From the NCBI GenBank assembly GCA_964234715.1, contig OZ174276.1: DNA of 64,000 nt, one strand, 5' to 3'. Positions 1 through 60,436 of this stretch are shown here, piece after piece (within the stretch, counting starts at the first letter, position 1; every line of letters starts with the position of its first letter). Both the position numbers and the translations under genes were made by a program. The stretch is from Podarcis melisellensis. Taxonomy: Eukaryota. Under the pieces are notes generated by a model. The model made no database searches and had not been told where the DNA came from. It was given only the letters and a program-made list of their open reading frames with translations.

Positions 1-2893
1 GGATGATTTCCCTAAGCAGGCACCTGGTTACTTCAAGTGCCTTTTCAGTCTTGGTGGGCCATGCTTCGACCCACCCGGTGTAGGTGCACACTGCCACCAG
101 CAGGTAACGGTACAGTCCACAACGGGGTAATTCAGTAAAGTCCATGACAAGATCTTCCATAGGTGCAGTTCCACTGTGCTGAATCCCTGGGAGAGCCAGT
201 GGTCCGGCTCTGGGATTATTCTTTTGGCATAGCAGGCATTTCCTGGAGATCTGGGCTGCCAGTTGGTAGAGGTGGGATATATAGAAACACTTCCCCAGCT
301 GCTTGGTTGTAGCATCTGGTCCTATGTGGGTTGAATCATGGTACCTCTGAATTATCTGCCGAGAAAGAGACTCTGGAATCCATATCCTGTCATCAGGGGT
401 AAGGTACCATCCTTCCTTGGACAAGGTCAGTTCCTGGGCGTCTGCAGTATCCTTTTCCTGCTTTGCGTAAGCTGGTTTATCAGTGGTGCTTAAAATCTCT
501 TCTGGGACCAGTGCTCCGATAACCAAGGTGGGGGCCAGTTCCCGGGCTGTTTCCTTGGCCACTCTGTCTGCCAATCGATTTCCTCTGGCCACTTCCCCTG
601 GTCCAGTCTTGTGGCCATAGCAATGGATAACTGCCACTGCCTCGGGCTCCCATACAGCATCCAGAAGGTTCAATAGAGCTTGTGGGTAGGCCACCTGGTT
701 TCCTCTGGAGGTAAGCAAACCTCTTTCTTTCCATAAGGCTCCATGGGCATGTAAAGTCAGGAATGCATACTTAGAATCTGTGTAAATGTTTATTTTCTGT
801 CCCTTTGCCAGGCTCAGGGCTCTGGTCAGCGCAGTTAATTCTGCCAGCTGGGCCGATGTTCCAGGCGGGAGTGACTTTGCTTCGATCACCTGGTCCTCCA
901 GGGCCACCACTGCATAGCCCGCCTTCCGTTGCCCAGCCTCAACAAAACTACTTCCATCTACAAACCATGAAGGCCAATGGGGGTTTGCCTCATCTTTGAG
1001 ATCAGGTCTGCTGGAATATACCTCGTCCATTACTTCGATGCAATCGTGCGTCTGCTCCTCACCTTCTCCTACCGGCAACAGGGTAGCTGGGTTGAGGGCA
1101 GTGGTAACCTGGAACTTCAAACGCGGGTGCAACAACAGCATCTGACACTTTCTCATCCTTGCTTGGGAGAAGAAATAGGTACCCTTCATGTCGAGTAGAG
1201 CTGGGACTGCATGCGGGGTCACACAAACAGTGTCTTGGCCAAAAGTAAATTTGTCTGCCTTGTTCAGTAGGGTAGCTACTGCCACAACTGCTCTCATGCA
1301 TGGCGGTAAACCTTGTTCTGTAGGTGTCAGGCGCTCAGATAGGTATGCCACAGGCTGTTGCCAGCTTCCCAGTTTCTGGCATAACACTCCCTTTGCTGTT
1401 CCCTGGTCTTCATCCACAAACAGGGAGAAAGGCTTTTCTGGATTTGGGATACCCAGCGCTGGTGCTTGCTGCAATGCCTTTTTCAAATCCTGGAAGGCAT
1501 GTTGTTGCTCTTCTCCCCACACAAAGGGGTCCTTTTCCGTCCCTCTGGTTGATTCATGCAGAGGCTTGGCAATTGTGCTGTAATCTGGTATCCATATTCT
1601 GCAGAATCCTGCCGATCCCAGAAAGCCGCGAAGTTCTCTGCGATTCTTTGGTTCTGGAATCTGGATAATGGCTTGCTTCCTTTCTTCCCTTAGGGTCCGT
1701 CGCTGATAGGATATATCAAATCCAAGATATTTCACAGTGGGTTGGCATATTTGGGCTTTTTTCTTAGATACTCGGTATCCAGCTCTACCCAGATGGTTCA
1801 GCAAATCCTTGGTGGCTTCCATACACGTGTCTTTGTCTGAACAAGCCAAGAGAAGATCATCCACGTACTGCAACAAGACTTTGCGTGGGCTGGTGGGGAA
1901 GCTAGACAGGTCCGATGCCAATGCTACCCCAAAAAGGGTTGGAGAATTCTTGAACCCTTGTGGAAGCCTCGTCCACGTATATTGCACCTTGGTGCCTGTT
2001 CCTGGATCTGTCCATTGAAATGCGAACAGGGGCTGGCTTTCCTCTGCCAGGCGGCAGCAGAAGAATGCATCCTTCAAGTCCAATACTGTGAAACAACATG
2101 CAGTAGGAGGTATTAGACTAAGCAGCGTGTAAGGGTTGGGCACATTGGGGTGGAGGGTTTCCACGGCCTGGTTGACCAATCGAAGGTCTTGGACCGGACG
2201 GTACGTGCCATCTTCCTTCTTTACCGGCAAGAGTGGGGTATTCCACTGAGATTGACACTGTCTCAGGATGCCATGGCGAAGTAACCGTTCCAAATGTACC
2301 CATACTCCCTCTGCAGCTCTTCGGGGGATAGGATATTGGTTTACAGCCACAGGGTTGGCGAATGGTTTGGGCTTGACTATTATAGGTGGGATGTTCTTTG
2401 CCATTCCGGGCGGGTTGCCTTCTGCCCACACATCAGGGTTAACTTCTTGCAAGAGGTCCTCTGAAATAATCCCCTCCTCTTCTTTTACCATCATTAAGCG
2501 CCAGTGTTCCCTTAAAGGTACCTCTAAGGAGAATTCCCCTGCTGGCCCTGTGGTCATTGTTACTTCTCCTGTTGGTTGGAAAGAAATCTGGGCTTGCAAT
2601 TTTGATAGCAGGTCTCGGCCCAATAATGGGATGGGGCACTCCGGTATATACAAAAACTTGTGTTGGACCACTTGGCCGCCCAAGCGACAGGCAACAGATT
2701 GCAGGAATGGGGCTCTTTGTGATTTGCCTGTAGCTCCTACTATATTAATTGTTTGCTTGGTGGGCTTGGATACTGGTACTGGCAAAACAGAGTGTGTGGC
2801 TCCGGTGTCCACCATGAAGGGGATGGTTCGGTTCCCTGTTTGTATTTTGACCATGGGCTCACGGGAACCTAAATCAGCTGGGCCCGGTCTGTC
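1..2893 (-). CDS. pol: Retroviral Pro-Pol (protease, RT, RNase H, integrase N-terminus/core), expressed by read-through of the gag UAG; runs off the window edge
   Basis: Manual translation in the gag frame: FMVDTGATHSVL (PR), LLQYVDDLL (YVDD at 1856-1867), WFVDGSSF (RNase H, ~956), HDSTH...CLLC (IN HHCC), MDFTEL and GWVEAWPTKTEKA. All are in one frame. The ORF track reports no stop-terminated ORF in this frame, consistent with it being open to base 1. Confidence 0.92.
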
Positions 2894-2896
2894 CTA
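2830..2896 (-). promoter_or_regulatory. gag-pol stop-codon read-through signal: UAG, 8-nt spacer, H-type pseudoknot
   Basis: Minus strand reads UAG GACAGACC GGGCCCA GCUGAUUUA GGUUCCC G UGAGCCC AUGGUCAAAAUACAAACA GGGAACC; stem 1 has 6/7 pairs, stem 2 has 7/7 pairs, loop 2 is 18 nt. Confidence 0.8.
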
Positions 2897-4738
2897 ATAT
2901 TCTTCCTCTTCCTCTCTCAGGCTCATTGCGCCGGACTGCCTTTGGGCTGGGGGGTGCCAGGGGGGTCCCTGTCCACATCCTCTACCCCTGCCGACATTCG
3001 CCGATGTCCAGGGTCTCAGTTCCTGTCCAGGTCCCACGGGGGTTGGCCCTGGGATTCGTTCTCCTCGTCCTCTTCCACCTGAATGAGCCTGTGGGCATTC
3101 TCTTTTCCAGTGCCCTTCCTGCCGGCAGATGGCGCACTGGTTCCTCCCCAAACGGCCTCTCCCTCCTCCCCGGGCGCTTCCTTTTTCATGAGGGGTGGGT
3201 GTGGTAACCTGTAACGCCATCAACTTTTTTGCTTGATATTTTTCCTTCTTCTTTTGTGCCTCTTCCTCCCTCTGATTATAAGTGGTTTGAGCCAATTCTA
3301 ACATCCACTCAAGGGTGTGGCCCATGAAAGCCTCGTGCTTCTGGATTTTTCGGCGGACATCGGGTGCTGCCTGAGCTACAAAGGCAGTTTTTATGATCGG
3401 GGCATTGGCAACCTCATCTGGGTCTACAGGGGTATACTGGCGGTAAGCTTCCTTTAGTCTTTCCAGATAGGCGCCTGGGGGCTCCTCACTCCCTTGCATT
3501 ATCTCTCTGATCTTGGCAAAATTAGTAGGCTTCCTGGCTGCCCTTCTCATGCCATTTAAGACATTCTGGCGATAGGTAATGAGGGAGTTCTGACCATTGG
3601 TAGTTTGGTAATCCCAATCTGGGGTTTCTGCTGGGTATAAAATGGCAATGTTGGGCTCCTGTACTTGTTGCTGTCTCAGATGAGTTCTAGCCTCAGTATG
3701 AATTCGCCTAACCTCCTCTGTAGTTAGCAGGGCATCCATCAAATACTGTACATCATCATAGGTGGGATTGTAGGTTTTGAAAATTCCCTCAAACAGCTTA
3801 ATTATTTTTGCTGGGTTTTCCTCAAATGAAGGGTTTTGGTTCCTCCAATTACAAACATCTGCACTAGAGAAGGGGACATGTTGAACTGTATAAGTTCTAT
3901 TGGGCACCACTCCGTTAGGTCCCGCGGGGGCCGGAGGATCATATACTCTACGTAAAGGCATCATTCCAGCCCCACCCTTTTTCTGCACCTCATGGGACTT
4001 ATGGAGGGCCGCCCTGGTTGCTGCTTCTATCCATTCCTTCTGCCATTTCTTCCCTTGTGTTGGGAGGCATTCTGCTGCGGCCAACAAGTGAGGACCAACA
4101 TCTACTTTTTCTGCATAAGGTTGTACATACCGTTGCAATCTTATCGACTGATACTGAGTCCACCCTTTTCCTTTCTTTGCTAGTTCAAGTAATCCCTTTA
4201 AAAATTCCTCATCATCTTCTTCATCTGATTCATCAGCCTCGGAGGGTTCAGGCTGGGGGCTAGCTCCTCCCAGTGCCTGGGGACCTGGGTCCGGTGGATT
4301 TGCCTGAGGGGCAGTTGGTGGAGCATAGGGTGGAGGTGGTCTAATAATTCCTCCCTCCTCTTCTTCTTGGTCTGGTATCACTGGGGGCCTTTCTGACTTC
4401 CCTGCCGGTCGAACTGTACAAACTGCACTCTGTGGGGCGTTGCCTCGGCAGGCTTTCAACCATGGTGGGTTCTTCTCTACATTGGTTTTCCAAGTAGAAA
4501 TATAAGGGATCTGGTCTGGGTGGACATTCAAGATGTTCTGATATAATGGACTGATTAGCTGCAAATCAAAGCTTCCTTCTGAAGGCCAAGTAACTCCTTG
4601 TAAGGGCCAATCAACTTCACACAATGTCTTCATTCTCTGTCTTCTTAATTTAATTCCCCAGTCATCATTTTTTGTGGCGGCTTTCCAATTGTTTAAAAAG
4701 CATTCCAGGGGACTACATTGGCTTGCCCCAGACCCCAT
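2894..4738 (-). CDS. gag: Retroviral Gag polyprotein (MA-p12-like-CA-NC), 614 aa
   Basis: Myristoylation start MGSGAS, gamma-type MA (WP..GSFD, HPDQIPYI.TW..PPW), PPPY/PTAP late motifs, CA start PLR, MHR IMQGSEEPPGAYLERLKEAY, NC knuckle CAICRQEGHWKREC. Confidence 0.96.
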   Translation of the reverse strand: MGSGASQCSPLECFLNNWKAATKNDDWGIKLRRQRMKTLCEVDWPLQGVTWPSEGSFDLQLISPLYQNILNVHPDQIPYISTWKTNVEKNPPWLKACRGNAPQSAVCTVRPAGKSERPPVIPDQEEEEGGIIRPPPPYAPPTAPQANPPDPGPQALGGASPQPEPSEADESDEEDDEEFLKGLLELAKKGKGWTQYQSIRLQRYVQPYAEKVDVGPHLLAAAECLPTQGKKWQKEWIEAATRAALHKSHEVQKKGGAGMMPLRRVYDPPAPAGPNGVVPNRTYTVQHVPFSSADVCNWRNQNPSFEENPAKIIKLFEGIFKTYNPTYDDVQYLMDALLTTEEVRRIHTEARTHLRQQQVQEPNIAILYPAETPDWDYQTTNGQNSLITYRQNVLNGMRRAARKPTNFAKIREIMQGSEEPPGAYLERLKEAYRQYTPVDPDEVANAPIIKTAFVAQAAPDVRRKIQKHEAFMGHTLEWMLELAQTTYNQREEEAQKKKEKYQAKKLMALQVTTPTPHEKGSARGGGRGRLGRNQCAICRQEGHWKRECPQAHSGGRGRGERIPGPTPVGPGQELRPWTSANVGRGRGCGQGPPWHPPAQRQSGAMSLREEEEEY

Positions 4739-5132
4739 TTTTTTTTTTTCCCTTCAGATACTCCTCTCCTAACTGGGTTATAAATTCTTTCACACACCAA
4801 ATAATACAGATTGTGGCCTGCACGAGGTCGCCCTGGCAGAAAACGCACAACCCTGCAATCGCTCGACCAAGGGGCACTAATACCCCGGCCCACACTCGAC
4901 AATTCAATCACCGGAGTATCTGACATGCAACACACACAACATACAAATCACATCAATATAATTTCCCCTCCTTCCTCTGTTCCAAATTTATGCTGGTGGC
5001 ATTCTCCTGCACAACCAGTCCCCTTATTCCTGGTGGCTGGCACTGTACTGCACAACCAATCCCCTTGTTCCTGGCTGGCACTGTACTGCCACAGCCAGGT
5101 GAGGCTGATCAGGCCTCGCCCTTTCCCTTGGG

Positions 5133-5139
5133 CTTACCT
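5133..5139 (-). promoter_or_regulatory. Probable major splice donor of the ERV (AG|GTAAG)
   Basis: Consensus donor AAG|GTAAGC on the - strand, between PBS and gag, where the env splice donor normally lies. Confidence 0.6.
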
Positions 5140-5327
5140 TTTTTCGCTGCAGACCCCTTCTGGCCAGTTCTCTTTTCTCCCTCGACCTGTGTCTCCACTC
5201 CGGAGCGGTGTGGCTGGTTCCCCCCACGAATTGGCAGGGTGCGCGCTTGGAGCCTGCAAAACGCCGATCCGAGCTGTTCACCGAGGTCGAGCCTGGCCCT
5301 CCCCGGCCCTCTGGGGTGGGGCAAAGA

Positions 5328-5345
5328 TTCCCGGCCAATGCACCA
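5328..5345 (-). promoter_or_regulatory. ERV primer binding site complementary to tRNA-Gly
   Basis: TGGTGCATTGGCCGGGAA on the - strand, 3 nt after the LTR CA; complement of the vertebrate tRNA-Gly 3' end ...TTCCCGGCCAATGCACCA. Confidence 0.92.
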
Positions 5346-5348
5346 AAC

Positions 5349-6390
5349 TGAAGGCTGAACCTTGTCCTTGCCAGGGAATCGTTTGCCCGCGTCCCCAGTG
5401 CCGAAGAGAGAGAGAGCAAAAAGCACCAGGAAAGTTTCTTCTTTGGAGAAAAGAGTTTATTGCAAACTGCGCACAGTGACAACCAGCAGGATCGCTCCTG
5501 CAAACTGGCTGTGTAGAAATACATTTCAGCAAGCCTTCTTATACCTTTTGAGCATTTCCCCCCCTCCCATTCCTTCCTCAAATTTTCCCCAATCAGCTGG
5601 CAAATGTTCAACTTATTCCCTTATATGGCACATCTATCTGCTGGCTAAGCACTTCCTCATACGTGTCTTTCTGCTAGCTAAGCACTTCCTTATTATGTGT
5701 CTTCCTGCTTATACACGTCTTTCTTATCTTTGCATTCCTTAAGGCAGGAAGCGTATGGCAGGAAACATGGTGATGATTCACCGTGCTAAGGAAGAAACCA
5801 AAAAGTTTTAAAAATTAGTTTCTTCCATTAGATTCACAAAATGTTTAGGGGTATGCATCCCCCTAGAAACCACCTTTTTTGCCAAGGTGCCCAAACATGG
5901 TTTGTAGTTTTGAAATATGAAAACAAATGCATGTTATAAAAGACAGAGTGAGACCTCTTTAGTAGGTTGGTTAGAATTGCAAACAGCTGCAATTCTGGCT
6001 AGCTGGTAAGGCAGGAAGCTGGACTCTTGACCTGCCTGAGTTTAGCAAACACCCATTGTTTGCAACTGCAAAAACAGGATTAATACAGGAATTTACTGCA
6101 GGAAATATTTGAGAGCAACCCCTACAAGATACAATGGTACAGAGAAGGCAGAAAGAAATCCTTCCCATGCCCTGCATGTATGTCTTGCATTTCTAAAAAT
6201 ATTTCTAAAACAGGAAACACAAAACAGGAAACAGCTCCCAGTCTGCAGAGCTGAAAACAGGAAACAGCTCCCAGTCTGCAGAGCTGAAAACAGGAAGCAA
6301 CTTCTGGCCTACAGAGCTGACGCATTTGCGGTTTCTGCCTAACCACAGCTTTTAGCTTCTTTACCTTATTAACCCTTCCTTCTCCCTTCA
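5349..6390 (-). repeat. ERV 5' LTR (~1042 bp)
   Basis: Inverted termini TGAAGG...CCTTCA, AATAAA at 5456-5461(-), TATAAG at ~5538-5543(-), tandem U3 repeats with ETS cores; abuts the PBS. The distal boundary is inferred from the terminal inverted repeat only, as the 3' LTR is not in the window. Confidence 0.75.
6221..6319. repeat. 3 x 33-bp tandem repeat in LTR U3
   Basis: aaaacaggaaacagctcccagtctgcagagctg twice, plus a diverged third copy. Confidence 0.9.
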
Positions 6391-9300
6391 AGATATCTTC
6401 AAGAGAGAATACTACGAATATAGAGAACAGTACCAAGAATCTGGTTGGCGCTAATTTTATATTCTGAATTGTTGGTATTTATTTTCCTGTGCCTGTTCTG
6501 TTGCAGCATATTTAACTTTGTAAACTGTGTTAAATGCTTTTTTAAAAAGTGGGATAAAAGTAAACTAAACACTTGTGCCTTTAAATTTGGTCCTGAAGAC
6601 TTGGCAGTAAGCATTACTCTTATTTGGGTATGGGGTGGAGAACAGGTTCATCAATCCTCACCATGGTTTTCTGATCTAACAAGAATAGAAACTGGTTAAA
6701 AATATTGTTCTAGAAGGAGATGGAAGCTGCTCTGATCTTGAAGTAGTTGAATTTAACAAGCTTCATTCATTGTCACTAGCTGCATAGGCAAAAAAATTCC
6801 TTGCAAAAAAGCTCTCATAAACCGAAGTCCTGTGAATTATTATTGTTAATGTGAATGTGCAGCTTGCTGGTAAATACATCACAAAATCCATTGCCATCTC
6901 AGGAGCAGCAAACCTTGGCATGTTGTGTCATCTAAACTCCAGGTAGTTTTCTCTAAAAAAAACTTTGGCTACCACTCATGGTTTGTTTGCAAGGAAGCAA
7001 AACTTTCTGGTTTGTTCCTTGTGGCCCAGGTAAGGCCAAAGCAGACACTTTTGAGCAATGTACTACTCCTTCACACTAAACCATAGTCAAATGTTAACTA
7101 TGGTTTACTGCAGGGGTTACCAGCATGGTACCTGCATGTGTGTACAGAGAGGCCTTCCATTGTGCCCACAGAGCCACTTCCCCACCACACCCCTCCCACC
7201 CATGAAATTAGGCTTGAAAGAAGCAGTCTGTTTTAGCCAATAGACCAGGTTTCAGTATGCGATTAGTTGCAGGGTGGCGGGGGTGCCGATGACAGTTTAT
7301 CCAGTTGCAGATGTGCCTATGAGCCAAAAGGGGCTGTGACCCCTGGTTTAACATGATGTGCTAACACAGCCAGTGTGTATTGAGGGGCAGTTAGTAGCAG
7401 CAATGTGGAGGGTTGATAATAAATGCAGCGGTCAAATTATCATGAAAGATCACTCAGGCAAGTTCAAAGTCTCTCTTAAAAAGAAGATAAGGTAGCCTGC
7501 TATCATGAGGCCATCAAAGGACAAGTAAAGTAAGTTTCCCTATGGAGAGAGTTGCACAGTTTTGATGCCACTGCCCCAAATTACCACTTACCATCCTTTA
7601 GAAGATGGAGACACAGAAACCCAGAACTCCAAGTGTGGGTGTTGATGGAGGCAGGTATGTTCATATGCGATGGGGGGAGTCACCACTATTAAAGTTAAAA
7701 TGTAATTAGTCTGTGGTGTAGCTTTTTTGCCTTCCCTCTGGGTAAAAAACAAACATGGTGTTGTTCTTCCTATATCTATAAGGAAGAAAGCATCCTTGCT
7801 TGCAGTACTGTAACAAAAAAAAAGGAACTCCAGCTTTGTTTTTCTCTGTCAGAGGCTGGGAATATTTTTAGTGGGATTCGTGACACAGCTGAAGACTGTT
7901 CATGTGACACACAGAGCAGTTTGCTTGTTAGGAGTCGCCCTCTCTTTCTGGAACATCCACTCAGAGCTCTGCCAACATGCCTAGGGTGCCCCTGCTTCAT
8001 ATTCTATTCATACTGCATTGGCAGGACAGAATTCAGTCTAACAAGGCTAGAGCAACATTCTGCTTAACCTTACTCTCTAGGACAGCATGTTCAAGCTAGG
8101 GAGAAGCCTTCGGCTTTACTGCACGTTCTTTTGCTTGTTTCAGAGCCAGCATGGAAACCTCAACATCCTCTTCTGATACAGTATGTTTTGTTACCCTCCC
8201 TTCTTTAGTGGTGCTTTTGCTAACGTTCTAGTGAGAGAAAGCTCAACATGCAGATAGGAATTGAATACATGCAATGAAGCATTCCTTCAAAAGATGCTCC
8301 ATTCATTTCTGAAATAGCTGCTGTCTGCTATTTTTGTTCATTCTGTCGTAGACTTACAAGTCCTGGTTATCCAGGCTGATCGAGAGCATGAAATATGTCA
8401 GAAATATATAGCAGGCATAAACCATATTCATCATGTAGAAGGATTCAAAAGTGGGAGGCTTGGATGAATGACTTTAGCCATACCTTTTCTGTTGTGCATG
8501 CCTGCTTGGTCTGTTTTGGAACTGTAATGAGATGGACTTGAAATGGTTTATGGTGGTGGTTTTTGTTCCATTTGTGTCATATAAATAGTGCCAGTAATAA
8601 ATGGTGTATTTGTGCACATTTTTTTGCTTGCTTTTATGATGGAAGAATAATTGGGCATCATAAAGCTGCCCTTTTCTATGAAATAAATCATAATACAAAA
8701 GGTTCTTGTCCCTTTTCATCCTCATTAGAGCTGTTTGTAGTTATGCAAAGTGATTTCCCCCCCTTAGGGATTTGAGGTCAGTCTTTGCTTTAGCAACAAA
8801 CTGAAATTCAATCTGCATGAACATGTTAGAATTTCAGAAGGGTGAAACATAGGTTTGTCATTGAGTAGCATTTATATTTTAGTTAAAACAGAGTTTGCCT
8901 CTCTTCTGTCTATCTAGATTGTGCATTTATTGGTAGTATTAACAGGCAAATATGGAATGAGGTACTTTGATTATGAAATTGGAATGTTTGGTCCTCACTG
9001 CTCTTAAGTTGGTTTCCTAATCAGCTTACGTTAGATCTGTTAATATTCCTTAACACAGCCATTTGAATGTCTTCCCACCTCCGTGACTCCAGAGAGAATT
9101 TATTTCCTTTGTCCTATGGTTACTCTTTCCTTGTTGTTTGAGTTTGCAGAAAGTTTTGGTTTATTTGATTGTTTTTTTGTCAGCATGGCTGAATCACAGT
9201 TTGTTTGCTCAGGGGTTATAAAAGTTCAGTGACTTGTGGCATTGTGCAGCTTTAAAGACAGCTACCAGTTGTATCAGGAGATGCAAAAAAATGGGGGGGG

Positions 9301-23150: not shown

Positions 23151-23289
23151 ATTCCCAGTGTAAACCACATTGAGGTTTTCCCCCCTTTAAAATATAAAGT
23201 GGTATAGAAATGTAATGAATAATAATGCTAATAGTAATAACAATGGTGATTAGACATTCCATTGTGGCAACTGTAACCTAGGTTTAGGG

Positions 23290-26063
23290 CAGTGTTTCCC
23301 AACCGGTGTTCCGCGGCACACTACTGTGCCGCGAGACTTTGCCTGGTGTGCCGCGGGAAAAATTGGCGGGGGGGGGGGGGAATAAAGGGGAAAAAAATTA
23401 TTCCCCCACCGCCAGGCGTGGGGCTGGGGCGGGGGAAGCCCGAGCTTCCCCCTCCCCCAGAACGGGACCCAGAGCCATGCCGAAGCTGCGCGCAGCTTTG
23501 GCATCGCTCTGGGAGCTTGCGGGGCTGGGGGAGGAGGAAGCCCTCCGCCAGCCTCCAAACCATGTCGGGAGACAGCGGGATGGCGCGCTGCGCCTCTCCC
23601 GCTGTCCCCCAAGTTTGCAGGGCTGGCGATGGGGAGGAGCAGGCTTCTCCCCCCGCCAGCCTTCCAGCCAAGTCGGGGGACAGCGGGATGGCGCGCTGCG
23701 CCTCTCCCGCTGTCCCCCGAGTTTGCGTGGCTGGCGATGGGGAGGAGCAGGCTTCTCCCCCCGCCAGCCTCCAAACCATGTCGGGAGACAGCGGGATGGC
23801 GCGCTGCGCCTCTCCCGCTGTCCCCCAAGTTTGCAGGGCTGGCGATGGGGAGGAGCAGGCTTCTCCCCCCGCCAGCCTTCCAGCCAAGTCGGGGGACAGC
23901 GGGATGGCGCGCTGCGCCTCTCCCGCTGTCCCCCGAGTTTGCGGGGCTGGCGATGGGGAGGAGCAGGCTTCTCCCCCCGCCAGCCTTCCAGCCAAGTCGG
24001 GGGACAGCGGGATGGCGCGCTGCGCCTCTCCCGCTGTCCCCCGAGTTTGTGGGGCTGGCGATGGGGAGGAGCAGGCTTCTCCCCCCGCCAGCCTTCCAGC
24101 CAAGTCGGGGGACAGCGGGATGGCGCGCTGCGCCTCTCCCGCTGTCCCCCGAGTTTGCGGGGCTGGCGACGGGAAGGAGCAGGCTTCTCCCCCCGCCAGC
24201 CTTCCAGCCAAGTCGGGGGACAGCGGGATGGCGCGCTGCGCCTCTCCCACTGTCCCCCGAGTTTGCGGGGCTGGCGACGGAAAGGAGCAGGCTTCTCCCC
24301 CCTGTGCCGCGAGACTTTGCCTGGTGTGCCGCGGGAAAAATTGGCGGGGGGGGGGGAATAAAGGGGAAAAAATTTATTCCCCCACCGCCAGGCGTGGGGC
24401 TGGGGCGGGGGAAGCCCGAGCTTCCCCCTCCCCCAGAACGGGACCCAGAGCCATGCCGAAGCTGCGCGCAGCTTTGGCATCGCTCTGGGAGCTTGCGGGG
24501 CTGGGGGAGGAGGAAGCCCTCCGCCAGCCTCCAAACCATGTCGGGAGACAGCGGGATGGCGCGCTGCGCCTCTCCCGCTGTCCCCCAAGTTTGCAGGGCT
24601 GGCGATGGGGAGGAGCAGGCTTCTCCCCCCGCCAGCCTTCCAGCCAAGTCGGGGGACAGCGGGATGGCGCGCTGCGCCTCTCCCGCTGTCCCCCGAGTTT
24701 GCGTGGCTGGCGATGGGGAGGAGCAGGCTTCTCCCCCCGCCAGCCTCCAAACCATGTCGGGAGACAGCGGGATGGCGCGCTGCGCCTCTCCCGCTGTCCC
24801 CCAAGTTTGCAGGGCTGGCGATGGGGAGGAGCAGGCTTCTCCCCCCGCCAGCCTTCCAGCCAAGTCGGGGGACAGCGGGATGGCGCGCTGCGCCTCTCCC
24901 GCTGTCCCCCGAGTTTGCGGGGCTGGCGATGGGGAGGAGCAGGCTTCTCCCCCCGCCAGCCTTCCAGCCAAGTCGGGGGACAGCGGGATGGCGCGCTGCG
25001 CCTCTCCCGCTGTCCCCCGAGTTTGCGGGGCTGGCGACGGGAAGGAGCAGGCTTCTCCCCCCGCCAGCCTTCCAGCCAAGTCGGGGGACAGCGGGATGGC
25101 GCGCTGCGCCTCTCCCGCTGTCCCCCGAGTTTGCGGGGCTGGCGACGGGAAGGAGCAGGCTTCTCCCCCCGCCAGCCTTCCAGCCAAGTCGGGGGACAGC
25201 GGGATGGCGCGCTGCGCCTCTCCCACTGTCCCCCGAGTTTGCGGGGCTGGCGACGGAAAGGAGCAGGCTTCTCCCCCCGCCAGCCTTCCAGCCAAGTCGG
25301 GGGGCAGCGGCAAGGATGCGCTGCGTTTCTCCGCTGTCCCGGACGGCTTTCAAAAGCCTGCCTTCAAAAGCCGTCCAGGACAGCGGAGAAACGCGCTGCC
25401 TTTCTCCGCTCTCCCGGGAAGGCAGGCAGGGGGGAGCAAAGGCTTTCGCCCCCGCCCGCCTTCAGAAGAGGTCCAGGACCTCTTCTGAAGGCGGGCGGGG
25501 GGCGAAAATCTTTGTCCCCCCTGCCTGCCTTCCCAGGGGCTTTTAAATCGCCCCGGACAGCGGAGAAGTCCTCCGCTGTCCCGGGCGATTTTAAAATGCC
25601 GCCCGCCAGCATTTTAAGATTGCCCCAGACAGCGGAGAAGTCCTCCGCTGTCCCGGGGTTTTTTAAAATGCTGGGGGTCGGAAGAAAAGCCCTTGTCCCC
25701 CCCCCCCAGCCTTCAGAAGAGGTCGGGGGACAGACTGCGGGGAGAAATCAGGGTGGGAGTCACGACCGTGAGGCAGGGCTGCCAAGTGTGGCAGAAGAGG
25801 ACACGGCCGTCGCACCTGTCCTTAGGTAGGAGCTTCTTCCGTGTCGACCTGCTGCCCTAAAGTCTTGGCTTTTTTCTTGGCTTTTTGGCGGTTGGCACAG
25901 AAGGAAGGCAAGGGGGAGGGGAAAAAATTGAAACTTACACTTTCGTGCGTCCCTCCCGGCGTTACGCTGCGCGCTGACGTCACGGGGCTGTAATGGTGGT
26001 GTGCCTCGATATTTTTTTCATGAAACAAGTGTGCCTTTGCCCAAAAAAGGTTGGGAAACACTG
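23290..26063. mobile_element. Non-autonomous hAT (Charlie/Buster-like) DNA transposon with internal GC-rich tandem array
   Basis: Perfect 15-bp TIR CAGTGTTTCCCAACC / GGTTGGGAAACACTG; perfect 8-bp TSD GTTTAGGG (23282-23289, 26064-26071); no transposase. Confidence 0.93.
23545..25310. repeat. 108-bp GC-rich minisatellite, two blocks of 7 units plus a partial unit
   Basis: Unit ccgccagccttccagccaagtcgggggacagcgggatggcgcgctgcgcctctcccgctgtcccccgagtttgcggggctggcgatggggaggagcaggcttctcccc; 36-aa periodicity in all translated frames. Confidence 0.95.
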
Positions 26064-33911: not shown

Positions 33912-34843
33912 ATTGAGCGATTAGATGTAAGCAGTCTAGCACAAACATCCAGTGCAGTGGCCTCAAGCACAGAGTGCAGCATCAACGCAGATTCCATTGA
34001 TGGAACGCCAGATCCTCAGCGCACAAAAGTGGCCATCACCCACCTGCAACAAAAAATACTGAAGTTGACTGAGCAGATCAAAATAGAGCAAACAGCTCGG
34101 GATGACAATGTGGCTGAATACCTAAAACTGGCCAATAATGCGGACAAGCAACAGAGTGCCCGCATCAAGCAGGTATTTGAGAAGAAGAACCAGAAGTCAG
34201 CCCAGACAATCCTCCAATTGCAGAAGAAGCTAGAGCACTACCATCGGAAGCTGCGAGAGATCGAACAGAATGGTATCCCTCGACAGCCCAAAGATGTATT
34301 GAGGGATATGCACCAGGGGCTGAAAGATGTGGGAGCAAAGGTCACTGGCTTCAGCGAAGGAGTGGTAGACAGTGTTAAGGGTGGACTTTCCAGTTTCTCC
34401 CAAGCAACCCATTCGGCAGCAGGAGCTGTCGTCTCCAAACCCCGGGAGATTGCCTCACTCATTAGGAACAGGTTTGGGAGTGCAGACAATATTGCTAATC
34501 TGAAGGACTCCTTGGAAGAAGGTCAAGAAGATGGGACTGGGGGGAAAACTCTAGGTGTTCATAATTTTCAGTCAAGCCCCAAATATGGCAGCGAGGATGA
34601 TTGCTCCAGTGCCACATCAGGCTCTGTGGGGGCCAACAGCACCACAGGGATCCCTATGGGAGCACCAAGCTCCAAAACGAACACTCTGGATATGCAGAGC
34701 TCAGGGTTTGATGCAATACTGCATGAGATTCAAGAGATCAGAGAGATGCAAGGACGGCTGGAGGAATCTTTTGAGAACCTTAAGGTTCACTATCAGAGGG
34801 ATTATTCCTTGATAATGCAGGCTCTGCAGGAAGAAAGATACCG
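33912..34843 (+). CDS. TMCC1: TMCC1 (transmembrane and coiled-coil domain family 1) large coding exon
   Basis: [20 protein letters not shown]...[21 protein letters not shown]...[12 protein letters not shown]...LQEERYR closely matches recalled mammalian TMCC1; acceptor tttccccag, donor CG|GTGAG. Confidence 0.96.
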
Positions 34844-36470
34844 GTGAGAATTTCAGACTAACTTTTCACTGATACTACTGATGTTAAAGCACACCTAGGT
34901 GCATGCATTCATTCAGCGCTAACAGTCTCACAGGTATCAGGCAGAACCCGTAATATATATACACATGCACAATTGTCCCCTTCTACATGTTCAGGTTTCT
35001 TCTTCCAGACTTTCACCTCTTTCAGCTTGCTACTTTCACAGCCCATGCATTCTGAGTGTCTATCCCAGTTTTGGAAACCAAAGTAGCCGTGTGCTACAGT
35101 TCCCTGCCCATCTCAAAATCCTCATCCTAATGGATGAGGGATTTTTGAGCACAACCTTTTCCGATGATCTACATAGAGGGAGAGGGTGGAAGGCAGAGGG
35201 CTCTAGGAGCAAGAAAGTTCTATGGCTGCAAAAAAAAAATAAAAAAAAATAAATTAAAGGCCAAAGCTAGGACTTTCCTCTGGAAGCTGTGAGCCAGTGC
35301 AGTAGTTGTAATACTGGTCTTGTAGTCACCCAACACTTAACAAACTGCACTTTGCAGGCTTCAGTGCTATGCTTCTCTAAAGGTTTGTGATACCTTCAGG
35401 GCCACCAAATCTTGGAGAATACTTCACCCTGTCTGTTATTATGATATTGGTAGTTGCTGTTCTTTGGTTGCCTCCAAAAAATTGTACCTTGAGTTACATA
35501 TTGAAAAAAACAATGTCAGATATTTGGACTTGTTGGTCCATGACTCCATATTGAAACTGGGAGGGCTCTAATCATACAATATTATGCTGATAGTATTTGT
35601 TCAGGCTTAGAGCAAGCATGAGCAGGCCGTGTTTTATTATTGAATAAAATAACTTACTGTATCATTTGGCATATGGGTCTTAGGATACGATATAACTTTA
35701 GGCAGCACTAATTGCTTTTGACTGCTTTTTTGCCATTTGCAGACATTGAAGCACAGAGTGTATTTTTTTTATTCCCTTTGTTGTATTTGTAACTTCTGCT
35801 ATATCTGCTTCATTGGGTTTAAGGGTAGTGTTAAAAAACCATTATCCTTAAGCAATCAAGATAGAGATATTTAACTGATTTCAAAATGACAGCATTGTCC
35901 CAAGAGTTCTTCCTCATCACCCTTCTGTATCACATGAAACTAGCTTTTAGACATCTTGGTATACACTCATTAGGCCATTGTTACCTGTTCCCAGAAGTGG
36001 CTCATAGGATCTCAAGTCTTTCCTAATCCTGCTACTTAAGGTGATTTTAACTAGTAATGCTACTAATTAAAGCCACAGTTTCCTGCATGCAATCTGTGTT
36101 CTCTTCCACTAGCTGTGGCCCTTTCCCAGATCAGTTTTTTTCAGATGTTCCTATGACTAGACTCTTTTTTCCCCTAGGGTGAGGGAATGTATTCATGATT
36201 TTTAAACACTCACATTGCATTTGGTTGTTGTAACGTACATCTACACCAAATTTATTAAACTGGTTTAAGCACCATAGCCCCCAACCTTGAGAATTGTAAT
36301 TTTCTAATGCTGTAAGATCTCCAACCACTCTCTGCTATTCTTTATGTTTTTATGTGTTAAACTAGTTCAGTTTATAGTTTATATCTGTAGCATTAAGCTG
36401 CAAGGAGGGGGAAAAGTACACTTGTTGTCAAATATATCTTATCTCCTATGCACCATAAAATGGTAAGAAG

Positions 36471-36629
36471 GGCCTAGGCTTAGTGGTGGAGCACCTCTTT
36501 TACATGCAGAAGGTCCCAGTTTCAGCCCCCAGCACCTCAGGATATGACTGGGAGAGACCCTAGTCTGACCCACTGCCAATCAATACTGAGCTAGATAGTC
36601 CGAATCCGTATAAGGCAACTTCCTATGTC
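36471..36629 (+). mobile_element. Old tRNA-derived squamate SINE (Squam3-like)
   Basis: A-box-like GGCTTAGTGG, degenerate B box, tail tataaggcaacttcctatg. Confidence 0.5.
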
Positions 36630-38313
36630 AGTCACACGTCTGAGTTGTATGTGTGTGCAGAGCCCCTCTGTCAGGAAGATTCTGTAGCTAGACACAGAGT
36701 TTTGGCAGATACCTGGCCGCCACCCTCTACTTTGTTTATAAGGAAAAGTTGCTTATATAAATAGTTATGTTTCCTAACAGAAAGGAGGTTAATTACATTC
36801 CTTTACTATAAAGCTAAAATCATGCTGTCTTCCCTCTCCCTCCTTCCCCTCAGTAGTGTGGAAGTTCCCTTTCTGGCAGCTTTTCTAGCTGTTACTGCCA
36901 TTATAGCACTGAAGATAAAACAAAGAGCATTGCGTCAAAAGATTTATTCGTTAACTCTCATTGCCCTTTTTACTGTGTAAGATTCCTTGCTGAGGGATTA
37001 GTAAAATCCACTTTAAGACACCCAAAAGATGGGGCTCTCCCTTGGCCTTGGTGAAGTGGTAACTGATGCCAAGAAAGCATATGGTAGTTTGCTGAAGGCC
37101 ATAGGTAGAACCGGTATGGGAGTTCAAGGCAGGCATTTCTCCGTTCTTGTGTTTAAAAATGACCCCAGTATGAAAGTCAGGGGGTTACACCAAAGGGTTC
37201 CGTTTCCTGTACAAAATTTTATTTCTCTAATGCAGTGGTAGCCAGTGTGGTAACCTTCATAGATGGTTGGACCTCAGTTTCCTGGCCGTTGATCATGCTA
37301 GCTGGGACTGATGGGAATTAGAGTCCTGTGATCATTAGGGGACACCGTGTTAGCGATCCCTGCTCTAATTAGAGTAGTTGGTGTTGCATGTAGTTTGTTT
37401 ATCATTCCCTGTTTGTCTGCAGCCTGCCTTCTTGCTGATGGTAGTGTAGTTAGTTGCCTTTGTTCGCTGAGACTTGGTGCTGCTAGAGCTGTGTCATCTT
37501 CTGATTCCCCCCTCCCATTCCACCCGGCCAGCATTTTTTGATGACAATATGATTTCCGCAAGTCACTTCTGCCCTGTGCTGTAGTGTCAGAAGTTATTAG
37601 AAGCCTTGGCAGAAGCTGTGCCTCCTGTCCATTGGGCAGTTGATGTGGCCTCATAGTCCAGACTGATTAGCCACTCCTTTTGCTTCCCTCTTTGGTAATC
37701 CAGCTCTATCTGCATGTCTGTTCTTTTTGCAATTGATCCTTTATCAGTGAGACCAAACTCCAAAATAGCCTGTTGCTTAATAGCTTTGAGAATATAGCTG
37801 ATGTTTACTTGATAAAACAGGACTTTATGTGCTGTCATCAGTTTCTACTGAGTCTCTTTTTACAATTTATGCCCGAAGCTTTCTTTACAGAGCAAAAAAT
37901 GACTTTAGATAGCTTAGATGCACTCCGTTCACTCACAGACTGCCAGTCTTCATGGGATCATCTTAGAAGCTCAATTAGTGTGTTGTGCTGCATTTGTATT
38001 TCAGTTTTTACAAGTTTAATCCCTTTGATCTACATTCTGTTGCTGTTTAATTCTAGTCTACCAAGATAGCCTTGAGACCAGTCATTTAGTGCTTTGCTGG
38101 CTTGTGATATGCAGAACTTTGTTTTGGAGACTTCTCTTATAGTCTCAATTTGAAATCATGATGTAAAAAGTGATGCATATTATGTGGAGCTTTAGAACAG
38201 TGGGTACTTATGCTAACCACAAAATATACAGGCACATCCTGTACCACACACACAATTTTTTTTATTTTTTTTTTGTATACAAGGGTGTGCATTTGCTACT
38301 TCAAAACAGATGT

Positions 38314-38455
38314 CTAGCACAGTCAGTAAGAGCATGAGACTCTTAATCTCAGGGTCATGGGTTCAAGCCCCAAGTTGGGCAAAGTGATTCCTGTTTTACA
38401 GGGGGTTGGACTAGATGACCCTCATGGTCCCTTCCAACTCCACATTCTACGATTC
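38314..38455 (+). mobile_element. tRNA-Lys(CUU)-derived SINE with CR1 3' tail
   Basis: Head matches tRNA-Lys (GAGCATGAGACTCTTAATCTCAGGGTC.TGGGTTC.AGCCCCA.GTTGGGC); tail gggttggactagatgacc..ggtcccttccaactc..ttcta.gattc. Confidence 0.85.
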
Positions 38456-40243
38456 AAGTGAAATGCTGGGTTTGATACCTCTTACTGCAAGATCAAAACA
38501 ACCAGCTTTAAAAAATCGTTATGGCATGTTCCACTCAATTTACGCCTTGGGTGTCCTATAGATGTTAAAGCGGTGGTGCAGGAGTTTCCCATAGCAGTGC
38601 TGTGACATCTAAAGGGAGCATTGGATGTTTCATCGTTAAAGAGAAAATTGGGCACCCCTTCAGAGGCAGCAAGTCTTCTTTGCACTGCAGCAAATTAAAA
38701 TCGCCCCCAACTATTAGATCACGAGCAAATATCTATGTATGCTGCGGAACCCAGGCAGTAAGCACCCAGAGTACTGCAAAAATGTCAGTTAAAATTCAGA
38801 ATGTTAAGGGAGTTGCAGCACATGCATTATCTACTCAGCAGTAAGCCCCATTGAGCTCAAAAGAACTTAAATGTGTGGGGGATTGCAGCTCTGAATAACA
38901 TTACAGTGCTCAGCCCAGTTCAACCTTCAGTTCATTTAATGAATTGATATTGCCCTTCAATGGGTATATCCAAGGCAGAAAAAACAAATACGTTATAAAA
39001 CAATCAATACAAGAGAAGGATTAAAGTATCTCATCAAATTCAAAGCATGGGAAAATAGAATGGGCTGTACCTGGCACCAAAAAGACATTAATGCAGCCCC
39101 CAGGCAAGCCTCTTGGGAAGAAAATTCCCTGAGTGAGGCACCACAAATAAAGGAATGTTTTGATAGCATGGTAACATGTTACATATTTGGTATCATTCTT
39201 TGCCCTCTGATACAAGGCCTTGGAGAGAGCCAAAAATTGCAGGAATATTTTTTTAAAATGTTATATTGGCATTTATAACTGATCCCCTTGGTACTCGGAC
39301 TGCAGTGTTTCCGAAAACACAATAATCTCACAATATAGGACACAATAAACCCAAAATATCACTCTATATTACTAAGCTTCAGTGCCTGCATGCTCTGAGG
39401 GTGCTGTAGGGTCATTGAAGGTTTCTACTCAAGGTAGAGGCTTGCTGCCGTTACAGAAAAATACTGACAGGTTGGACTAATAACCCCTGCCTTTTCTGCA
39501 AATTCCTCCCCAAACCTCCCTAATGTGTCCATTCCTCTGTTGCTGAAGAATATCACTGGTAGGAGAAGATAACAACGTGGTTTAATTGGCAAAAGGCAGG
39601 CAAGCATGGCTAGTTTCTGAACAGAAGTCATTTATGGGCAGGAAAAGGGTAAGGAGGCTCTGCCACACCCAGAGATTACAAGGTGCCAGCCTCCTTAAGG
39701 TTCTCTTACACGCTATGGTGAGAAGATGGACTCGGTGCCAAATTTTGTTTTTTAGTGTCAGTTTGTCTGAGCCAGATTTTCCTTCTATCCTTTATACTCA
39801 CTTGCTCTGTGAAAGCACCTGTGATGCACAGATGTTGAGCAAAGTCATCCTTCCTTTGTTGTGAAGCTATCACCCATAGGTGGGAGGAAATACTTGGCTT
39901 GGAAAGAGTGTTTTCTTTGGTATACTTTACCCAAGCCAAATTCTGCCCCTGGACCCTCTGAATGTTTCAAGGATGTTGAGCAGAATCAACCTTTCTCCAC
40001 TGCCAAGGCAATGTGGCAAAGTGTTCCCTTGTGAGCCAGTGGTTTGCATATGTTCTCCAGTGAAAACTGCATATAAACCTACTCAACCTTTTGGGATCCA
40101 CCTGTCAACTAATGCTACCTTTTAAGTACTATTCCCTCCCCCAACCCCCATTATAATTGCAAATATAATAATATCACACCAGTTGCTAATTCAGGACATG
40201 TATTTTTTCCTCCATTTTAGTATACATACCTAGGCAGCTTATA

Positions 40244-40477
40244 CAGTGGTACCTCGGGTTACATATGCTTAAGGTTACATACGCTTCAGGTTACAGACTC
40301 CGCTAACCCAGAAATACTACCTCGGGTTAAGAACTTTGCTTCAGGATGAGAACAGAAATTGTGTAGCGGCAGCAGGAGGAGGCCCCATTAGCTAAAGTGG
40401 TGCTTCAGGTTCAGAACAGTTTCAGGTTAAGTATGGACCTCCGGAACGAATTAAGTACTTAACCCGAGGTACCACTG
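40244..40477. mobile_element. Tc1/mariner (pogo/Tigger-like) MITE
   Basis: TIR CAGTGGTACCTCGGGTT / AACCCGAGGTACCACTG flanked by TA; further copies at 53880 and 54582. Confidence 0.9.
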
Positions 40478-41465
40478 TATTTGCATAGAGGGGAGGCAGC
40501 AAGTGAGGCTGTCTCTTAAAGGGGCTGCATAACAGTAACAGTGTGCTGTCGTGAAGAGGAAACCAGCCCTAGAAATAAGAAAAGGCCCTTGTCATGCGAA
40601 CATGTTTGGACACCTCTGTGGCACTTCCTACAATTTGAGATGCCCTTATTTGAGTTCATTATACTGGGTGCCTTTAAATTTATGCTTAGAAGGCTATAGA
40701 AAGCCCACTGATATGTGCTGTAACGTTGGTGTGAAGTGATTCCTGGCCCAGAAGCCATCCATAATGTTTTGTACCAGCTGCACAAAGGGCTGACTTCTCT
40801 AGAATCTGATTAAGAATGTTAAATAGCCCTGTCAGAGCAAGAATACAGTTGATGAGGCAACCCAGGGTTCCTTTTGAACATATATTATTATAGTTGTGCA
40901 AGGTTACCTAGCTATGTTTTTCCCACATGTCATTATGCCCACGTGCGGCATGTGAACAGCAGGAAATTTAAAGCCTGATGTGAAACTACACAAAGAAAAT
41001 CGAAACCCTTGAATTCCAGGATACACTTTCCTATATTTAATTTGTTTTGAAATTTAAACCCTGCCTTTCTTTGTAAGTTTAAAGCTGCATTTTTAAAAGT
41101 CCATAAAACATGCAGAATCTACAGGACTTTCAAATGAGGTAGATTTAGCTGCTTACCAGTGAAAATCTCAGTTTTACTGTCTTAGAGCACTTTAAGACCT
41201 ACACGTGGGAATATGTATTAAGTTTCCTGCCATCACATTGAATCCACCAGTCTTTGGTAATATGGCACCCTGAGTGAGGCCAAAATTTCGCATCCCCTCA
41301 GCTCAGTGCCCTGTTTGGGGGAACTGTCCACACCACCCTAAATCCAGCACTGCTACCAACTCTGGTTTTCAAAATGGTTGGTCATCTCTTTGAGCCTGAG
41401 TTTGCAAAGAAATGCAAAGTAGATACTTTTAAAATATGTTTGACGGCCATATTTCTCTGTTCTAG

Positions 41466-41601
41466 ATGTGAACGGCTAGAAGAGCAGCTGAATGACCTGA
41501 CTGAGCTCCACCAGAATGAGATCCTTAATTTAAAGCAGGAATTGGCCAGCATGGAGGAAAAAATAGCTTATCAGTCTTATGAACGTGCCAGAGACATCCA
41601 G
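41466..41601 (+). CDS. TMCC1: TMCC1 penultimate coding exon (coiled coil)
   Basis: (R)[45 protein letters not shown]; tag|A acceptor completes the phase-2 codon; donor CAG|GTTGG. Confidence 0.96.
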
Positions 41602-42350
41602 GTTGGTGAAAGTGACAAGCAAATTGAAAATGGTCAACTGATTATATTTTTCTTAACTATTGAGCTGGTTCAGTTTCCGCTTTAATTCCCATTAATAGTG
41701 GAATCAGATTTTGTGCCCTGTATTCTGAATTACATTTATCTCATTGTTTTTACTGCAGGAGTCTTTGTTAACAGGAGCCAGATAACCATCTACAGTACTC
41801 TCAAAAGTTCAAATGAGAGTTTGCCTCCGTATTTGAGGGAAGCTATAATAAAGCTTTTCCATGTGTGTTTGGGCCAAAATGCTGCCCTGTGAAGCATAAG
41901 AGTTTTTTAATAGTATTTTCCCTAGTTAGCTGATGGCAGGATGTGTCTGTCACTAATTTGAATCCTATCTGTACAAATGTTGAATTAAAAACAGTAGCTA
42001 GCTTTGTATATCCTCTCAGGCCTTTCAGGAAGCAACCTATTCCATTTTTCTTTCCCAAATAAGGATGTGTTTTGAGGGGGAAGTTTTTGGTCTGGGTATG
42101 TCAAGTATTTGAAATTCAGAAGTCTGAAAAGTTGAACTTGGAGAGTTGCAGCTGCAAAATAAACACCAAGAACAAGTAACCAAGCCCTTGCCTGACCGCA
42201 GTGAAATACTTTCTTACTTGTTTCACATTCACCCAAGTTATAAAGCCAAAGTAATCCCTTACAGGGTTGTTGTTATTATTCCAGCTGGGGGAAACAGTGT
42301 TCAAAATTCTGCCACATAAACTGTCCAGGCGTGTAGTAGTAGTAATAGTA

Positions 42351-42404
<54 letters not shown>

Positions 42405-42610
42405 ACCCCACCCATCTGGCTTGGTTTCCCCAGCCACTCTGGGTGGCTTCCAACAGAATATTAAAATAATCTATTAAACATTAAAAGCTTCCCTAAACAG
42501 GGCTGCCTTCAGATGTCTGCTAAAAGTCTGGTAGTTGTTTTTCTCTTCGACATCTGGTGGTAGGGCGTTCCACAGGGCAGGTGCCACTACCGAGAAGGCC
42601 CTCTGTCTGT
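42351..42610 (-). mobile_element. L2-type LINE 3' fragment with (ATT)n tail
   Basis: Reverse complement closely matches 62340-62605. Confidence 0.75.
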
Positions 42611-43482
42611 GTAGGTTTAGGGTGTTGGTTTTAAATTAGAGAGGTGCATTCAACCCCTTCTGGTTCAATGGTAATTATAATAGTAATAGAAATGGTAATA
42701 ATAATCATCAGAATAAACAATTTTCACCAGCTGTACTGTTGCTACTTCAGCATAAATTAAACATCAGTGTCTGGAGCACTTATATTATAAACTGCCACCA
42801 TTGTTGGTGAGGGGTATGAGACACAAGTATTCATGCTGGGATGTGTGGGGTGGTGTTCAGGCAGGTAGCTGAAATTGAGCTACCTTTCCTGAAGACCTAT
42901 GTCTCTTCATTCAATCCCAGAGTTGTACTGTTTATAACAGTGGCCTGTGATATGAAAGCATGAAATGGAAAACAGGTAGGATCCACCGTCCTCTACTATT
43001 GCTGAGGCTGAATCTATCATGCCACCAAGTCTTGTGAAAGTACTGTTGTAAATGCAATAAGCAACTTGCATTGTGGTTGGATCTGCTTGTTTGCATTGCG
43101 AATTGCCTGTATGCACTATGCAGCACGAAGGGAATTTTTGCTACAGGACATGAATCCAGCAAGTGTTACTCATATCCTGTGCAGTGTGAGTAAGGCTGCA
43201 GGAATGCCTGAGGTATTGAACTCCCAAACTTTATTTAGACTCAGGATATGCAAAACCAGTTCTTCATCCGTGTCCTTGGCACCTGATCTCACTGTCAGCA
43301 GACTGGCGTGATTCCAACCAAATGTGTCCAGGAACCCACTGCAATTTTTGACCCATTTGAGTAGGAAGCAATACAGAACAAGGCCAGCCTCTCTCCCTTC
43401 CCCATTTTTGGATGAAACCAACATGCATATGCATGAGATAAGGTGTTGTGCAGTTACTGATTCATTCTCTTACTCTCAACAG

Positions 43483-43797
43483 GAGGCACTGGAGGCATGT
43501 CAAACCAGAATCTCAAAGATGGAACTGCAGCAGCAACAGCAGCAAGTTGTCCAGTTGGAAGGTCTTGAAAATGCCACTGCCAGAAACCTCCTGGGCAAAC
43601 TAATTAACATCCTCTTGGCTGTCATGGCCGTTCTGTTGGTCTTTGTCTCTACCGTGGCCAACTGTGTTGTCCCCCTCATGAAAACTCGCAGCAGGACGTT
43701 CAGCACTTTATTTATAGTGGTCTTCGTTGCCTTTTTGTGGAAGCACTGGGACGCCATCACTGGCTACTTGGAACGGTTCTTTTCTCCCCCTAGATGA
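43483..43797 (+). CDS. TMCC1: TMCC1 last coding exon (two transmembrane helices)
   Basis: EALEACQTRISKMELQQQQQQVVQLEGLENATARNLLGKLINILLAVMAVLLVFVSTVANC...FFSPPR*; acceptor caacag|GAG. Confidence 0.97.
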   Translation, partial: EALEACQTRISKMELQQQQQQVVQLEGLENATARNLLGKLINILLAVMAVLLVFVSTVANCVVPLMKTRSRTFSTLFIVVFVAFLWKHWDAITGYLERFFSPPR

Positions 43798-60357: not shown

Positions 60358-60436
60358 GATTCCGATGCCGGCGTGAAGGGCGATGGATGGAACACAGTGC
60401 TCTAGCCAGAACAGTCAGCTCTGAATTGGTTCTGCC

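Follow-up and report, generated by a model that had tools for sequence, protein, structure and literature searches.

In textbooks, gamma-like retroviruses are the standard example of simple retroviruses, and some PERV elements are primed by tRNA-Gly. In lentiviruses, small genes such as vif, vpr and vpu lie between pol and env. According to the accessible parts of the respective papers, VL30 is primed by tRNA-Gly (PMC9450689), and the capture of extra ORFs by endogenous retroviruses (ERVs) is uncommon (PMC4299795). Wang and Han (2023) reported 412 invading ERVs (ERVi) in 123 species, including Acar.ERVi.1 of Anolis (PMC10435555, accessible parts).

We analyzed a window of 64,000 nucleotides from the lizard Podarcis melisellensis (contig OZ174276.1), together with its left-neighbour sequence. 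The provirus at its left end shares with ERVi intact gag-pro-pol-env genes and near-identical LTRs, and insertional polymorphism is likely here as well. The RT of the Anolis ERVi resembles that of the lizard element by eye. ERVi are defined by identical LTRs, whereas the copy in the window has one LTR mismatch. The preliminary description of this locus had treated Gly priming as a notable trait and intact squamate ERVs as poorly catalogued. Neither point can be upheld, since Gly priming is already known and is common to these lizard families, and PMC10435555 already lists invading ERVs of squamates. In that source, no ERVi identifiers of Podarcis, Lacerta or Zootoca occur in 14 supplement files; none with the codes Pmur, Lagi or Zviv occur in 21 of its 36 squamate places, where the host codes are Hcur, Ctig, Scro, Acar and Cada; and the word 'accessory' is absent from its main text. 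The accessible parts of PMC9723728 and PMC3265301 contain nothing specific to the element, and in the mostly open-access literature we found no description of this ERV family or of the gene, here called ORF X, that lies between its pol and env. Both Gly priming and the invasion of lizards by ERVs have been described before; accessory genes in the lacertid clade seem not to have been. A young, intact and probably polymorphic ERV is a known kind of element, and what is new is that an orphan gene under selection lies between pol and env.

Structure of the provirus

The provirus lies on the minus strand and is complete at 10,083 bp when the window is joined to its left neighbour. The 5' LTR (5349..6390, 1,042 bp) has TG..CA ends, a TATA-like box at 5543, AATAAA at 5461 and tandem repeats in U3. 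Its segment 5806-5906 matches a very high-copy genomic repeat, as a depth spike in all four runs indicates. The PBS (5328..5345, minus strand), 3 nt past the LTR, is complementary to host tRNA-Gly(GCC): read from 5345 to 5328, it matches at 18 of 18 positions the 3' end of all four genomic genes that ARAGORN called Gly(GCC), drawn from 17 pattern hits. A candidate major splice donor (5130..5140, minus strand, GT at 5137) was recognized by its AAG/GTAAG-like consensus.

The gag gene (2894..4738, minus strand) runs from an ATG at 4738 to an in-frame TAG at 2896-2894 and encodes 614 aa with MA, p30 CA and one CCHC knuckle. The A-run before its ATG (4739-4750) varies among copies and in some of them places an upstream ATG in frame with gag (676-683 aa), for which homopolymer error is a possible cause. 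An extended Gag starting at this upstream ATG was dropped as a candidate because it is in frame in only two of the six family copies. The pro-pol frame (1..2893, minus strand) continues to G000:C2:86923276; it is open for 964 codons from 2893 to the window edge and for 1,205 codons across both sequences. It carries PR, RT with YVDD, RNase H and IN, and Pfam assigned MA, p30, the CCHC knuckle, PR, RT, RNase H, IN-H2C2 and rve to gag and pro-pol. The two genes share one frame and are separated by the TAG, so Gag-Pol would be made by read-through. The read-through signal proposed earlier stands in part: the TAG is in frame and a G/C-rich stretch comes after it, as suits read-through, but a plain fold did not demonstrate an MLV-type pseudoknot.

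Beyond the left window edge, also on the minus strand, are ORF X (117 aa; G000:C2:86922917-86923267, which is L001 3618-3968), env (506 aa; L001 2079-3599), and the 3' LTR with a polypurine tract before it (G000:C2:86920308-86921349). ORF X starts 8 nt past the pol stop and ends directly before env. What the preliminary description had read from the window alone, namely intact gag, a single pro-pol frame with its signatures, the tRNA-Gly PBS and preserved LTR termini, was confirmed, and a splice donor is present as a candidate. Its predictions for the left neighbour were also borne out: the IN C-terminus, env and 3' LTR are there, and the target-site duplication AGAT (4 bp; 6391..6394, plus strand) has its partner left of the 3' LTR. 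It had named in-frame stops in 1-2893 and a highly diverged 3' LTR as findings that would speak against an intact recent provirus; the frame is open, and the two LTRs differ at one base in 1,042.

Family copies, age and insertion site

A genome LTR search found at least 13 near-identical LTRs, representing six proviruses and one solo LTR; the best 40 of 1,123 candidates were scored, so this family size is a lower bound. Internal identity among the six copies is 99.8-99.9%. The gag, pol, X and env genes are all open in five of the six, and the remaining copy carries frameshifts in gag, pro and env. Target-site duplications are 4 bp long and different in each copy, and perfect in five. Three of the six copies have LTR pairs with neither mismatch nor gap, and all six together show 2 substitutions in 6,243 columns. 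At 1.98e-9 substitutions per site per year, the rate given for P. muralis in the accessible part of PMC8760935, the six copies together date to about 81,000 years ago, with an upper bound of 292,000, whereas the window copy alone gives 0.24 million years (upper bound 1.35 million). The LTR calls for the copies on C19 and C3:6.12 were imprecise and did not enter the dating. These values agree with the recent origin proposed earlier, and from the sequence it is plausible that the provirus is still active. In two of the six copies (L002, L004) the PBS has a one-base variant, which perhaps corresponds to another Gly isodecoder.

TMCC-family coding exons lie on the plus strand at 34026..43749, to the right of the provirus, and the upstream (N-terminal) coding exon starts at G000:C2:86873382. 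Since plus-strand exons flank the provirus on both sides, it lies antisense within an intron, which is about 84 kb long. This is the position that had been proposed; the gene is presumably TMCC1. Downstream of the TMCC exons, 56245-60414 (minus strand) holds an open gag-pol-like frame of 1,389 codons, of Ty3/Gypsy type by eye, and at L070 (G000:C2:86771274) an open frame of 1,464 codons likewise looks Gypsy-like by eye. A GC-rich tandem array occupies 23250-25830, and both of its strands contain long open frames.

Contigs in three of the four runs (X4, X7 and X8) align from exactly 6391 rightwards and carry 206-222 further letters beyond that point, which fit nowhere on the LTR; run X1 was uninformative. 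X4 carries the label of the best-matching species, and X7 and X8 come from two other species. A repeat in the left flank is located where empty-site contigs would end. The pattern is likely that of an empty site, the extension being judged by its misfit to the LTR. Because contigs from three other lizards pass the site without an LTR, the insertion is likely polymorphic, which raises what had been offered as a possibility. A fixed orthologous insertion in distant species would have spoken against this, and X7 and X8 instead show the empty-site-like pattern.

Relationship to other retroviruses

The closest relatives of the RT are in Podarcis raffonei (97%), P. muralis (94%) and Zootoca (79%), and in the PDB it matches best an RT of MLV type (E 6e-103). 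A quick tree of 77 rows placed it within a lacertid clade (support 97), among ERVs of reptiles and amphibians and separate from a mammalian clade with PERV-B (support 97); 44 of 121 proteins were left out of this tree (without a name or with fewer than 240 aa aligned), and MLV itself is absent from it. The phylogeny called for in the preliminary description thus gave the gamma-like placement, with the lacertid clade outside the mammalian Gammaretrovirus. The characters of class I are present: RT, Gag and IN are of MLV type, and Env is of gamma type, with CXXC in SU and an ISD and CX6CC in TM. For the genus Gammaretrovirus, in contrast, the RT is not nested with the PERV-B clade, and ORF X stands between pol and env. 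By these sequence characters, the element is gamma-like (class I) and not a member of the genus Gammaretrovirus. It shares with MLV and PERV the p30/MA Gag, one zinc knuckle, the in-frame TAG, the MLV-type IN C-terminus and the 4-bp target-site duplication, whereas the selected ORF X, the short SU with an N-terminal CXXC and the double-hydrophobic Env leader occur only in the lizard element. At L051 138-160, the PBS of an env-deleted relative (pol 95% aa) is of another type; we take it to resemble tRNA-Glu, which would mean primer switching inside the clade.

Env has two hydrophobic segments at its N-terminus, the first Trp-rich and ahead of the signal, followed by CWLC at 108, RNRR, the ISD, CX6CC and TM. 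Its best PDB match is Syncytin-2 (E 3e-16), and its 18 homologs come from lacertids, snakes and tuatara, among other sources. Compared with the Syncytin-2-type gamma Env (N-terminal CXXC, no RBD), as presented in the accessible parts of PMC9967133 and bioRxiv 10.1101/2024.03.17.585361, the lizard Env shares CWLC near the SU N-terminus, the ISD and CX6CC but adds the Trp-rich membrane segment before the signal; gamma-type signal peptides are short and canonical in PMC9967133. The Podarcis Env of EnvR supergroup group 1 in the same preprint has CX9CC, in contrast to CX6CC here, and the supplements of that preprint may list related Podarcis Envs. The Trp-rich leader was not found in the named snake and tuatara Env homologs, and it recurs at at least 106 places in the genome (the best 150 of 161 candidates were scored). 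The protein P0139, an Env of another type, has the same leader, which indicates that the leader is modular. Deleted, non-autonomous elements that bear X and retain the Env leader were observed at L069 (G000:C2:86785000-86790000) and L046-L049; one such element sits 135 kb left of the window.

ORF X and the sister families

ORF X is identical in all six family copies and has at least 151 matches in the genome (the best 150 of 163 candidates were scored). In fetched loci, it lies just upstream of env or an env remnant, usually right after pol or after a second small gene, ORF Y, and this position is retained down to about 35% identity. Among the matches listed, 24 are near-full-length and at least 72% identical, and 22 of these are free of stops. 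In 16 rows of 34-96% identity, the motif YSCGC..H..H is kept, with C51, C53, H73 and H78 invariant. A codon model gave an omega of 0.30 over 15 loci (LRT p 1e-23), which were chosen from the 151 matches in a way that favours open copies, and 0.44 over nine close loci (p 6e-5). Divergent classes often carry stops, in 26 of 44 copies of the 110-codon class and in 9 of 11 of the 116-codon class among the matches listed, and their fetched members are deleted, non-autonomous elements.

The X protein is acidic (pI about 5), with at most four basic residues in any ten, and a sequence scan found neither a 19-residue hydrophobic stretch above 1.62 nor an arginine-rich motif. Apart from one 85% near-copy, searches of Pfam, PDB and 1.8 billion representatives gave no credible homolog, a blank that exaggerates the isolation of X since small ERV ORFs are seldom annotated. 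A PDB profile search returned one match (E 0.5), driven by a His-tag; none of 32 pattern hits in IMG/VR was confirmed; and Foldseek gave nothing at E < 0.001. The AF2 models were unusable (pLDDT 47 for X and 39 for Y). Several candidate relationships were rejected. A match to an FBPase fragment had an Atlas cosine of 0.93, but its recognition was 2214 (below 2300) with 161 shared features, and a divergent homolog did not reproduce it. P0122 and P0123 (E 9e-7 and 2e-4) are CHRD and InlB-repeat proteins that were matched in several stretches. Paralogy of X and Y had a probability of 1%, and derivation of X or Y from Env one of 0.1%. Judged by its sequence, X is a selected extra gene unlike any catalogued protein.

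Between this family and its sisters, dN/dS is 0.08 for pol and 0.14-0.20 for both gag and env; pol and env, like X, are thus under purifying selection. ORF Y (128-135 aa), which is unrelated to X, occurs in sister families alone or with X; its omega is 0.66 (p 0.03), so the evidence for selection is weaker than for X. In a Y-only family, pol is shared (about 95% aa) whereas env differs (about 51%), a combination that points to cassette exchange. Some sister families have spread with Y plus only a C-terminal remnant of X, and X is therefore not essential to the clade. A second young family (L017 3889-4296, L019, L027 and L055) has ORF Y, YADD in RT, a 465-aa env, near-identical LTRs of about 705 bp and a Gly-type PBS; its env frame of 474 codons is common to 15 loci.

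Discussion

We consider it fairly probable, taken as a whole, that a coding-intact gamma-like retrovirus carried the selected gene X, a predicted zinc-binding accessory protein directed against host defences, into the lacertid germ line; the entry likely occurred within the last few hundred thousand years. By established retrovirology, its reverse transcription would be primed by tRNA-Gly. Copies would spread by reinfection, as the constraint on env suggests, and X would be produced from a spliced mRNA, which is likely because pol ends with a candidate acceptor and the next ATG downstream of it is that of X. X may then act as a small soluble zinc-binding protein that helps the virus against host defences; the zinc binding is predicted from the motif. 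The anti-defence role is the weakest step and is put forward tentatively. It is suggested by the size and position of X, by the invariant CxC..H..H and by the lack of Tat/Rev-like basic segments or membrane segments. In position, size and Cys/His motif, X recalls lentiviral vif, vpr and vpu, to which it has no sequence or profile similarity, and the membrane peptide ahead of env recalls vpu; both likenesses are analogies only.

The element could instead be an ordinary simple gamma-like ERV, in which splice signals or RNA structure maintain the spacer between pol and env, and X has stayed open by chance or through hitchhiking. The extreme end of X, immediately ahead of the env ATG, does contain a pyrimidine-AG acceptor candidate, and this end survives as the remnant in Y-bearing families. 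However, omega is still 0.37 (p 7e-5) when both termini of X are removed, the X frame is open in all 15 loci while the other five frames contain stops in each, and the Cys and His residues are invariant though synonymous sites are near saturation. We therefore regard a mere spacer as improbable. X may also be a real gene that regulates viral expression, as a Tat/Rev/Bel-like transactivator or an RNA-export factor. Small Cys/His-rich ORFs between pol and env act in this way in complex retroviruses, and the LTR is long and repeat-rich, but the acidic X has no arginine-rich motif and has been lost or swapped for the unrelated Y in thriving sister families. Such a regulator appears unlikely, and we favour, still as a tentative choice, the zinc-binding anti-defence adaptor.

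The copies may also have arisen by intracellular retrotransposition or trans complementation from a virus that is already non-infectious despite its open frames. Many deleted relatives have been amplified in the same genome, and open frames are no proof of function; against this, env is intact in five of the six copies and is under purifying selection between families. We regard a non-infectious origin of the copies as rather unlikely, and spread by reinfection is retained in the reading preferred here.

It is conceivable, though doubtful, that wall lizards are now being invaded by complex gamma-like retroviruses with an exchangeable accessory kit (the zinc-binding X, the unrelated Y and the Vpu-like leader) that targets novel reptile antiviral factors. 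If true, a young polymorphic lizard clade that keeps selected orphan genes between pol and env would represent another independent origin of retroviral complexity, and X-type proteins would be pointers to little-known reptile antiviral defences. Polymorphic copies in the well-sampled wall lizards would make germ-line invasion testable in the wild.
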